From: Escherichia coli
GTDB lineage: Bacteria; Pseudomonadota; Gammaproteobacteria; Enterobacterales; Enterobacteriaceae
DNA length: 64,000 bases
NCBI RefSeq assembly: GCF_013122565.1
Contig: NZ_CP053258.1
Direction: 5' to 3' (one strand)
Part shown: piece after piece, positions 22,564 to 49,660 of the stretch
Layout: every line of letters starts with the position of its first letter
How positions within the stretch are numbered: the first letter of the stretch is position 1
Translations under genes and position numbers: made by a program
Notes under the pieces: generated by a model
Databases searched by the model: none
What the model was told of the DNA's origin: nothing
Seen by the model: the letters and a program-made list of their open reading frames with translations, nothing else

Positions 22564-22736
22564 GGTCAGTGCGTATTTGCAGCGCGACGTTATCAAAGGT
22601 GATCATCGTCGATTTACAAAAAATACACTTAGCGCCCAAAGGGTTTCGCTCCGTCACATCGAATGCCGATGTACGGTACTGTGAACCATGACAATATGGA
22701 CAGCGGAAATGGAGATGTTGAGTAATAACGGCAACC

Positions 22737-22949
22737 TTAGAGCGTAACAACGTTCGCTGCCGCGGGGCCACGTTGCCCCTGCTCAATAGAAAATTCAACT
22801 TTCTGATTTTCGTTCAGCGTGCGGAATTCATTGCTCTGGATGGCGGTGAAATGGACGAAAACGTCTTTGCTGCCATCATCAGGAGTGATAAAGCCAAAAC
22901 CTTTATCTGCGTTAAACCATTTTACTAAACCAGTCATTTTATTAGACAT
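22737..22949 (-). CDS. cspG: Cold shock protein CspG
   Basis: 70 aa [38 protein letters not shown]... Confidence 0.95.
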
Positions 22950-23234
22950 ATTTTACTTCCTTCATTTTGGGCCTTTCGGCAAACAGGGCTTTAATACAGA
23001 AACTACTTAGTGTTCAGGAGAGAGACTCAAAAGAAGGGGATAATGCCTGATAATGAGAACTGCTTTAGTAAACTACTTTGTATGCTGTCTGTCTTTCAAA
23101 CCGACGCAGCTATTAACGCATGATAATTGAGATTAAGCAAATTTTATTTTAGCCGTCCGGCGGTCTTAAATATCGCTGGCTTTATTTTATTAACCCCGTA
23201 TAGTGCAGCGCAGTATTTTCAGTAAGGAATTTGT

Positions 23235-46437: not shown

Positions 46438-46890
46438 TTATTCCTTACCCAGCAATGCCTGCAGATCCTGCTTCAGAGAAGACATTTTATTCGCGTATTT
46501 CTCTTTGTTTTCCGCATCTTCAATCAGCTGAACAATCGTTTCAGAAAGCGTTTTACCGCGACGCTGCGCAAGACCAGCCAGACGTTGCCAGACAATAAAT
46601 TCCAGATCGATCGATTTTTTGCGCGTATGCTGGTGTTCCGCATTAAAATGGCGCTTCCGTCTGGCCCGAATGGTTTGCTTCATGCGATTGACCAGTTCCG
46701 GATTCATATGCTTGTCAATCCAGCCATTTACCAGCACGGGTTCATTTTCCAGCGAGAGCAACACATCGACGGCTTCCTGGGCGGCACTGGCTTCTATGTA
46801 ACGGGTGATTAACTCCCCTTCGCGGTGCTTCTTCACCAGATACTTCCATTTCCAACCGCTTTCAAGATTTTCAAGTTGTTGATATTTCAT
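46438..46890 (-). CDS. matP: Macrodomain Ter protein MatP
   Basis: 150 aa [35 protein letters not shown]... Confidence 0.94.
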
Positions 46891-47075
46891 AGCGATCTCA
46901 ATGTTACCGTGTAACTCTTTACAGAATATCAGCTTTTTAGGCCAGTGAAGAAAAGAATCTCCATCCTGTGAGCTTTAACGCTCATGCGAGGAGTATTGTC
47001 GGTGCTTTCTACGTGTGCTGTAGTGCCGGTTACGGTATAATCGCGGCTTTGACAACAGACTAAAAAACATCAACT

Positions 47076-48836
47076 TTGACCATTACGAAACTTGCATGGC
47101 GTGACCTGGTTCCTGATACCGATAGCTATCAGGAAATATTTGCTCAGCCACATTTGATTGACGAAAACGATCCTTTATTCAGTGATACTCAACCGCGACT
47201 GCAATTTGCGCTGGAGCAGTTGCTGCATACGCGAGCATCCTCCTCTTTTATGCTGGCGAAGGCCCCGGAAGAGTCTGAGTATCTGAATCTTATTGCCGAT
47301 GCCGCGCGTACGCTACAAAGCGATGCAGGCCAACTGGTGGGCGGTCACTATGAGGTTTCCGGCCACTCCATCCGCTTACGTCACGCAGTGAGTGCAGATG
47401 ATAATTTTGCGACTTTAACGCAAGTTGTCGCTGCCGACTGGGTAGAAGCGGAGCAACTCTTTGGCTGCCTGCGCCAGTTTAATGGCGACATTACCCTGCA
47501 GCCTGGTCTGGTGCATCAGGCAAATGGCGGTATTCTCATCATCTCTTTGCGTACACTGCTGGCGCAACCTCTTCTGTGGATGCGGCTGAAAAATATCGTT
47601 AACCGCGAGCGTTTTGACTGGGTTGCGTTTGATGAGTCGCGCCCTCTCCCCGTCTCTGTGCCTTCGATGCCATTGAAGCTGAAAGTCATTCTGGTAGGCG
47701 AACGCGAATCATTGGCTGATTTCCAGGAGATGGAGCCAGAGCTTTCAGAGCAGGCTATTTATAGCGAATTTGAAGATACTCTGCAGATTGTCGATGCGGA
47801 GTCAGTAACCCAGTGGTGTCGCTGGGTGACATTTACCGCCAGACATAATCACTTACCTGCACCGGGAGCGGATGCCTGGCCGGTACTTATCCGCGAAGCA
47901 GCACGCTACACCGGTGAACAAGAAACGCTGCCGCTTAGCCCGCAGTGGATCCTCCGCCAGTGTAAAGAGGTCGCCTCCCTGTGTGATGGCGACACCTTCT
48001 CCGGCGAGCAGCTAAACTTAATGCTACAGCAGCGTGAATGGCGCGAAGGTTTCCTCGCTGAACGCATGCAGGATGAGATCCTTCAGGAGCAAATCCTGAT
48101 TGAAACCGAAGGCGAACGCATCGGGCAAATTAACGCCCTTTCGGTCATTGAATTTCCGGGTCATCCACGCGCTTTTGGCGAACCTTCTCGCATTAGCTGC
48201 GTTGTGCATATTGGCGATGGTGAATTCACCGACATCGAGCGCAAAGCGGAGCTTGGCGGCAATATCCATGCGAAAGGGATGATGATCATGCAGGCGTTCC
48301 TGATGTCGGAACTACAGCTTGAGCAACAGATCCCCTTCTCAGCATCGCTGACATTTGAGCAGTCATACAGTGAAGTTGATGGAGATAGTGCCTCGATGGC
48401 TGAACTCTGCGCCCTGATAAGCGCCCTCGCCGATGTGCCGGTGAATCAGAGTATCGCTATCACAGGTTCAGTCGATCAGTTCGGTCGCGCCCAGCCGGTC
48501 GGTGGTTTAAATGAGAAAATCGAAGGCTTCTTTGCTATTTGCCAGCAACGTGAGTTAACCGGGAAACAAGGTGTCATTATCCCCACAGCTAACGTTCGCC
48601 ATTTAAGTCTTCACAGTGAACTGGTGAAAGCAGTAGAAGAAGGCAAATTCACCATCTGGGCAGTAGACGATGTGACTGACGCACTGCCGTTATTATTAAA
48701 TCTGGTGTGGGATGGCGAAGGCCAAACGACGCTGATGCAAACCATCCAGGAACGTATCGCGCAAGCATCGCAACAGGAAGGACGTCACCGTTTTCCATGG
48801 CCATTACGTTGGCTGAACTGGTTTATTCCGAACTGA
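47076..48836 (+). CDS. ycbZ: Lon-like protease YcbZ (S16 peptidase domain, no P-loop seen)
   Basis: 586 aa from TTG start, (M)[21 protein letters not shown]...; Lon Ser-Lys dyad context [10 protein letters not shown] and GGLNEKIEG. Confidence 0.88.
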
Positions 48837-48847
48837 TCGGACTTGTT
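48831..48847 (+). promoter_or_regulatory. FadR operator of fabA
   Basis: AACTGATCGGACTTGTT, match to FadR consensus AACTGGTCNGACCTGTT; overlaps ycbZ stop codon. Confidence 0.7.
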
Positions 48848-48848
48848 C

Positions 48849-48866
48849 AGCGTACACGTGTTAGCT
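48849..48866 (+). promoter_or_regulatory. FabR operator of fabA
   Basis: Palindrome AGCGTACACGTGTTAGCT immediately downstream of the FadR site. Confidence 0.6.
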
Positions 48867-48904
48867 ATCCTGCGTGCTTCAATAAAATAAGGCTTACAGA
48901 GAAC

Positions 48905-49423
48905 ATGGTAGATAAACGCGAATCCTATACAAAAGAAGACCTTCTTGCCTCTGGTCGCGGTGAACTGTTTGGCGCTAAAGGCCCGCAATTGCCAGCACCG
49001 AACATGCTGATGATGGACCGTGTGGTCAAAATGACCGAAACGGGTGGTAACTTCGACAAAGGGTATGTTGAAGCAGAACTGGATATCAATCCGGATCTGT
49101 GGTTCTTCGGATGCCACTTTATTGGCGATCCGGTTATGCCGGGATGCCTGGGCCTGGACGCGATGTGGCAGCTGGTAGGGTTCTACCTCGGCTGGCTGGG
49201 CGGCGAAGGTAAAGGCCGCGCGCTGGGCGTTGGCGAAGTGAAATTCACTGGTCAGGTACTGCCGACAGCGAAAAAAGTGACCTACCGTATTCACTTTAAA
49301 CGCATTGTTAATCGTCGTCTGATTATGGGTCTGGCAGATGGCGAAGTGCTGGTTGATGGTCGTCTGATCTATACCGCCAGCGACCTGAAAGTCGGTCTGT
49401 TCCAGGATACGTCTGCCTTCTGA
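48905..49423 (+). CDS. fabA: 3-hydroxydecanoyl-ACP dehydratase/isomerase FabA
   Basis: 172 aa [40 protein letters not shown]...; hot-dog fold His in [10 protein letters not shown]. Confidence 0.95.
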
Positions 49424-49448
49424 TTATAATCAGACAGAGTATCAAAAG

Positions 49449-49480
49449 GCGAAACCTCCGCAATGCGGAGGTTTCTTTTT
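49449..49480. terminator. Intrinsic terminator between convergent fabA and rmf
   Basis: GAAACCTCCGC-AAT-GCGGAGGTTTC hairpin followed by TTTTT. Confidence 0.65.
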
Positions 49481-49492
49481 AAAGAGACAGAA

Positions 49493-49660
49493 TCAGGCCA
49501 TTACTACCCTGTCCGCCATGGCTTCTCGCCAGCCTCCCAGCCATTGTGACCTTTGATTCAGCGTCTGATAGGGACACATTTCTTTTGAGCGTCCGGCGAT
49601 GCCGGCCTGATAACCACGTTGATGTGCCCGTTCCAGGCGATCTCGTTTTTGTCTCTTCAT
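49493..49660 (-). CDS. rmf: Ribosome modulation factor
   Basis: Hand translation MKRQKRDRLERAHQRGYQAGIAGRSKEMCPYQTLNQRSQWLGGWREAMADRVVMA (55 aa). Confidence 0.85.
   Translation of the reverse strand: MKRQKRDRLERAHQRGYQAGIAGRSKEMCPYQTLNQRSQWLGGWREAMADRVVMA

Follow-up and report, generated by a model that had tools for sequence, protein, structure and literature searches.

Transcription of fabA in E. coli K-12 is controlled by FadR and FabR (Henry and Cronan 1991/1992; Feng and Cronan 2009, 2011; work cited by PMC4259882, PMC11226057 and PMC3462791). At fabA, FadR sits in the -40 region, with FabR overlapping the -10 region (PMC3462791). Two fabA promoters are controlled by FadR/FabR, and fabA mRNA in a yhdP fadR double mutant is more than 4-fold below that of the wild type. 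The fabB promoter is organized similarly, i.e., a FadR site (GGCTGATCGGACTTGTT) is followed by a FabR palindrome, and the fabB promoter probe (PMC4259882) has the same CTGATCGGACTTGTT core as fabA. These two activator-type sites carry TGA where the operators of the fad genes have TGG, and they differ from each other at operator positions 1-2 (GG in fabB, AA in fabA); the fabB site is not known to overlap a stop codon of the gene before it.

Two further K-12 studies concern transcription that enters fabA from upstream. Conway 2014 (PMC4161252) used RNA-seq and annotated a "ycbZ-fabA operon" at the same locus, which is depicted in Figure 1 of that paper; the legend designates the promoter 5' of ycbZ as primary and the promoter 5' of fabA as secondary, with relative strengths not given. 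Xu 2020 (PMC7083825) described a third fabA start, S3, which is CpxR-dependent and located 203 bp 5' of the ATG, within ycbZ. This start is active at pH 4.2 (i.e., acid-induced) and needs a footprinted CpxR box. The locus analyzed here is the same as in both studies, with the CpxR box present and with upstream and internal promoters.

A further likeness is to secM-secA and tnaC-tnaAB, where, as in ycbZ, a strong stall that depends on the nascent chain and on codons occurs at the end of an ORF that precedes a co-transcribed gene. Unlike the short secM and tnaC leaders, YcbZ is a 586-aa enzyme-like protein whose stall residues are not conserved, and fabA is served by a strong promoter of its own that follows the YcbZ stall.

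The fabA control region at the 3' end of ycbZ

In the stretch of 64,000 nucleotides of E. coli DNA that was analyzed (hereafter the window), ycbZ occupies positions 47076-48836 on the + strand (586 aa with a TTG start in the ORF list; a Lon-like protease family protein) and fabA occupies 48905-49423 on the + strand (172 aa), leaving a gap of 68 bp between the genes. RefSeq names at the matching E. coli loci are ycbZ, fabA and rmf. Of 5426 complete E. coli genomes, 5425 matched the region, and in these the ycbZ/fabA junction (48800-48910) was at least 99% identical. YcbZ matches the Pfam families AAA_32 and Lon_C (i.e., LonB-like AAA and Lon_C domains), and its nearest solved relative is the Lon-like peptidase 4fwd (E = 1e-57).

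Window and K-12 MG1655 align collinearly, with their coordinates adding up to 1065375, and 20 base differences were found over 3101 nt, none of them within 48633-49161. As this interval is the same as in K-12, published K-12 results transfer to it base for base. Sequence, layout and conservation were established in the present analysis, and for binding, start sites and co-transcription we rely on the K-12 literature. The 17-bp operator, the FabR palindrome and the distance to the fabA ATG (-74) showed no difference from the K-12 fabA promoter.

The FadR operator of fabA, AACTGATCGGACTTGTT, is located at 48831-48847 on the + strand and the ycbZ stop codon, TGA, at 48834-48836 on the same strand, where it forms operator positions 4-6; the last sense codon of ycbZ, AAC for Asn586, forms operator positions 1-3. 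The sequence-only reading had the FadR site begin 3 nt 5' of the ycbZ TGA, and these coordinates proved exact. Its identification of the site as the FadR operator of fabA was borne out both by probe identity and by a unique, top-scoring match in the window. Specifically, window positions 48822-48877 are verbatim the FadR gel-shift probe "fabA-F" of PMC4259882, which was bound by wild-type FadR and left unbound by the W60G mutant (PMC4259882). The site fits the 17-bp FadR recognition pattern CTGGT/CTGAT-N3-AC and occurs once in the window even if up to 3 mismatches are allowed, as compared to an average of 0.13 matches in shuffled sequences. With a rough FadR weight matrix built from seven published sites in the PMC4259882 probe sequences, the fabA operator scored 20.9 bits, the best of 127,968 window positions (runner-up 14.7), the fabA site being itself included in the matrix. 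The operator type of fabB and Serratia, with GGC instead of AAC at positions 1-3, had an equal matrix score.

Hexamers read by eye suggest how the operator would be placed relative to the FadR-dependent fabA promoter. A putative -35 element, TTGTTC, is located at 48843-48848 (+ strand) and a putative -10 element, TATCCT, at 48866-48871 (+ strand), separated by a 17-bp spacer that holds the FabR repressor palindrome AGCGTACACGTGTTAGCT (48849-48866, + strand), which lies inside the published probe and is conserved across loci; on this assignment of the hexamers the operator centre would fall near -40. A consensus promoter scan of 46850-49600 with a 9-of-12 threshold returned no promoters, and thus missed the fabA promoter, as the latter matches the consensus at just 8 of 12 positions. 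As the fabB promoter probe shares the CTGATCGGACTTGTT core, we infer that the TGA triplet would be a feature of the activator-type FadR site rather than one placed there for terminating ycbZ. Overall, the operator, its layout and its overlap with ycbZ are the ordinary, known fabA control region.

Position of the ycbZ stop codon across species

We compared 80 fabA loci from different species and located the YcbZ stop and the best FadR-like site in each. A ycbZ 3' end was found upstream of fabA in 78 of the 80 species loci, with YcbZ homologues of 36-100% identity, and 60 of these 78 loci had a FadR-like site of at least 12 bits upstream of fabA. The ycbZ stop was the operator TGA (positions 4-6) in 47 of the 78, ranging from Vibrio to Escherichia, which is a comparative result new here. 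This layout was found in all Enterobacteriaceae (26/26), Yersiniaceae (10/10), Hafniaceae (3/3) and Budviciaceae (2/2) loci, in 2 of 11 Erwiniaceae loci, in two Pasteurellaceae loci, in one Vibrionaceae locus and in one locus from an unclassified member of the Enterobacterales (a metagenome-assembled genome). Operator positions 3-8, 10, 11 and 15 were invariant among the 47 same-layout loci, which had been chosen using the FadR matrix that itself favors those positions, and the codons before them varied freely.

Other families showed the operator and the stop codon apart, or the operator in decay. Among the Morganellaceae, 8 of 9 loci kept a site of 12 bits or more, with the ycbZ stop 11-23 nt upstream of it, and the ninth locus (a second Providencia) had a site of 11.1 bits. 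Several Erwiniaceae have the stop in the same place but as TAA, with the left half-site (CTG) destroyed and the operator decayed; in five loci of Erwinia, Pantoea and Tatumella with a TAA stop (L033, L039, L051, L054 and L056), no site of at least 12 bits was found within 260 nt 5' of fabA. Judged from these sequences, this pattern suggests that much of the Erwiniaceae may have lost or rewired the activation of fabA by FadR. In the Pectobacteriaceae (Pectobacterium, Dickeya, Brenneria), ycbZ ends eight codons earlier in 5 of 6 loci.

A second inverted repeat was observed next to the operator. The YcbZ tail NWFNQ/H found in many Enterobacterales corresponds to AACTGGTTyAACCAG, a perfect CTGGT-N3-ACCAG palindrome with GntR/FadR geometry that adjoins the classical operator; in the window it lies at 48813-48830, and its right half is degenerate (AACTGGTTTATTCCGAA). 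The palindrome is present in five Pectobacteriaceae loci (L029, L031, L032, L034 and L048) and in loci L040, L042, L049 and L054, approx. 88 nt 5' of fabA. In Pectobacterium, Brenneria and Dickeya it is non-coding yet kept, and the classical operator has lost its left half; the Dickeya version, CTGGTTGGGCCAG, retains the half-sites with an altered spacer. As a second FadR site this palindrome was rejected, with scores of just 2.9-8.4 bits in the seven-site matrix and a degenerate right half (-0.3) in E. coli.

Overall, the comparison is in line with an arrangement that is old and compact and would give a single triplet two uses, and it suggests no obligatory coupling between them. The retention of the overlap in every Enterobacteriaceae, Yersiniaceae, Hafniaceae and Budviciaceae locus could also reflect a functional coupling.

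Transcription across the operator

The sequence-only reading had also proposed that no terminator separates ycbZ from the fabA promoter, and both the terminator scan and the fold of the junction agree with this proposal. On the + strand, no terminator was found between 47135, at the 5' end of ycbZ, and the fabA start; the scan showed a terminator-like site near the ycbZ 5' end (47110-47135) and, as the next one, a hairpin at 49451-49475, past fabA. The RNA fold of 48790-48910 contained a hairpin without a U tract and of unremarkable stability (z = -1.45). No known RNA family was found by Rfam at the ycbZ-fabA junction. Elsewhere in the window, Rfam matches above the gathering score were a cspA-type thermoregulator 5' UTR at 22683-23105 (- strand), a PyrD leader at 60603-60676 (- strand) and an 85-nt tRNA at 33650-33734 (+ strand), probably serT as judged by its position relative to K-12.

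Published 3' ends are consistent with this picture. The curated Term-seq data of Adams 2021 (PMC7815308) contain no ycbZ 3' end; the lone nearby end on the sense strand is that of the fabA terminator (K-12 1015897, window 49478). The two-strand terminator scan and Term-seq both identify an intrinsic terminator at 49451-49480 that is common to fabA (+ strand) and rmf (- strand). It consists of one GC-rich hairpin, GAAACCTCCGCAATGCGGAGGTTTC, with T runs on either strand, between the convergent fabA and rmf genes, and the Term-seq 3' ends are located at K-12 1015897 (-), i.e., window 49478, and at 1015926/7 (+) (PMC7815308).

The S3 start maps to approx. 48702 on the + strand when its published position (PMC7083825) is converted from the fabA ATG at 48905, and the CpxR box, GTAGAagaagGCAAA, lies inside ycbZ at 48633-48647 on the + strand (-272 to -258 from the fabA ATG in Table 1 of PMC7083825). 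An AT-rich, -10-like stretch, TTATTATTAA, was read from the sequence at 48690-48699. One base that differs between the window and K-12, position 48632, adjoins the CpxR box on its 5' side and is A in the window and G in K-12. As S3 transcripts start within ycbZ, they must traverse the FadR operator. The published operon, the Term-seq ends and the S3 start agree with the sequence-only reading that transcription from the ycbZ side crosses the DNA of the FadR operator. Such transcription is thereby established and is put to physiological use.

On the opposite strand, the Rho-termination table of Adams 2021 (PMC7815308) contains a region antisense to ycbZ, at K-12 1016556 (+), which corresponds to approx. 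48819 (-) in the window; this antisense region is the only entry that names ycbZ, and fabA is absent from the table. The coordinate agrees with the observation by Conway 2014 (PMC4161252) that rmf transcripts stop before or within ycbZ-fabA. We considered a FadR roadblock of the antisense transcript from the rmf side and rejected it; the Rho coordinate (48819, - strand) is 12 nt past the operator and not before it, and a roadblock therefore fails to explain the antisense termination.

Taken together, we consider it very likely that this locus represents the previously described E. coli fabA control region, which extends into the 3' end of ycbZ. On this reading, a FadR dimer binds 48831-48847, centred approx. 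40 bp 5' of the main start and over the -35 element, and activates a weak sigma-70 fabA promoter until released by long-chain acyl-CoA; FabR occupies the adjoining palindrome at 48849-48866. Because the fabA promoter directly abuts the gene end (68-bp gap), ycbZ takes the TGA of the left half-site of the operator as its stop codon. With no terminator in between, transcripts of the ycbZ promoter and of the internal CpxR promoter traverse the operator, continue into fabA and stop at the fabA/rmf terminator, and this read-through yields FadR-independent fabA mRNA that is important at acid pH. The overlap would then be a by-product of compact packing, with roadblock or occlusion effects probably minor.

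The sequence-only reading had further raised transcriptional interference or coupling between ycbZ and fabA. The coupling part, in the form of co-transcription, stood, and it is already known from published work; for the interference part, nothing that we found offers support. One explanation of this kind would make the overlap functional, in that FadR on its operator would stop polymerases that come from ycbZ or S3, or in that read-through would displace FadR and occlude the fabA promoter; FadR control and transcription from upstream would then affect each other appreciably. The operator does stand in the path of documented read-through, the promoter is uninsulated by any terminator, and 47 of 78 loci retain the overlap. 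However, induction of fabA by NlpE/CpxR was reported to be unaffected in a fadR fabR double mutant (PMC7083825), and interference by or on FadR is therefore probably small. Moreover, the Morganellaceae keep the operator with the stop codon 11-23 nt upstream; the overlap is dispensable in several lineages; ycbZ transcription is, on our assumption, too weak to occlude the fabA promoter; and the literature searched reports no such effect. We thus regard a functional overlap as unlikely.

Ribosome stalling at the end of ycbZ

The codons immediately before the ycbZ stop are the site of a published ribosome stall (PMC8848927), with Pro585 (CCG) in the P site and Asn586 (AAC) in the A site, at 48828-48833 on the + strand. 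No stronger ribosome stall has been reported in E. coli. Monosome and disome occupancy at Pro585/Asn586 exceed those at Pro166 of secM, and both cryo-EM (PDB 7CPJ) and a purified translation system confirmed the stall, which needs both P585 and N586 and is independent of the 3' UTR. The substitution N586A abolished stalling in a reporter (PMC8848927). That the A-site codon of this stall coincides with operator positions 1-3 is a new observation here. In the literature searched, no paper ties the YcbZ stall to fabA or FadR or names ycbZ alongside FadR, and ycbZ is named with fabA only by Conway 2014 and by an unrelated paper on queuosine.

Pro585 is encoded by CCA in a representative E. coli genome (L002), as compared to CCG in the window. 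As tRNA-Pro(CGG) was assigned to the P site in the cryo-EM structure of the stall (PMC8848927), this synonymous variant might alter the stall.

The coincidence of stall, stop codon and operator might be purposeful, in the manner of tnaC or secM, such that ribosome arrest governs the fate of the read-through mRNA, either by shielding it from Rho or RNases or by setting the distance between ribosome and polymerase across the fabA promoter. In favor of this, the stall is very strong and falls on operator positions 1-3, and ycbZ and fabA share a transcript (PMC4161252). On the other hand, the YcbZ ending PN* was limited to 13 of 26 Enterobacteriaceae loci and was found in none of the other families, i.e., the arrest residues are not conserved, and the authors of the stall study likewise describe them as poorly conserved (PMC8848927). 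S3 transcripts begin within ycbZ and so cannot bear ycbZ-translating ribosomes, the fabA start codon is approx. 70 nt downstream and thus beyond the ribosome footprint, and the Rho table (PMC7815308) lists ycbZ a single time, in antisense, and never fabA. We therefore consider a purposeful arrest very unlikely. Because the stall residues are not conserved and S3 transcripts are without ycbZ-translating ribosomes, a regulatory link between the stall and fabA has a low probability; that stall, stop and operator (48828-48847) together form a device that sets how much ycbZ-initiated transcription enters fabA, or that sets the encounter between polymerase and FadR, is accordingly a long shot. If true, it would link the gene of an uncharacterised Lon-like protease to the control of unsaturated fatty acid synthesis.

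A chance resemblance of the motif to a FadR site, or a ycbZ ORF that is not a real gene, has practically no probability left and is refuted by the verbatim match to an experimentally bound probe (PMC4259882), the unique and top-scoring site in the window, the YcbZ homologues (36-100% identity) that precede fabA in 78 of the 80 loci compared, the Pfam and PDB matches, and the ribosome profiling and cryo-EM of ycbZ translation (PMC8848927).

If the locus is taken, as we prefer, to be the previously described fabA control region extending into ycbZ, it adds little as biology, as co-transcription and the internal promoter have already been published; the comparative result and the stall coincidence are small additions. 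The dual control of the fabA promoter by FadR and FabR is a textbook example, and fabA determines the unsaturated-to-saturated fatty acid ratio of the membrane. At this locus, ycbZ deletions or reporter constructs can lose the operator, the CpxR box or the S3 promoter, and altering the last YcbZ codons alters the operator.
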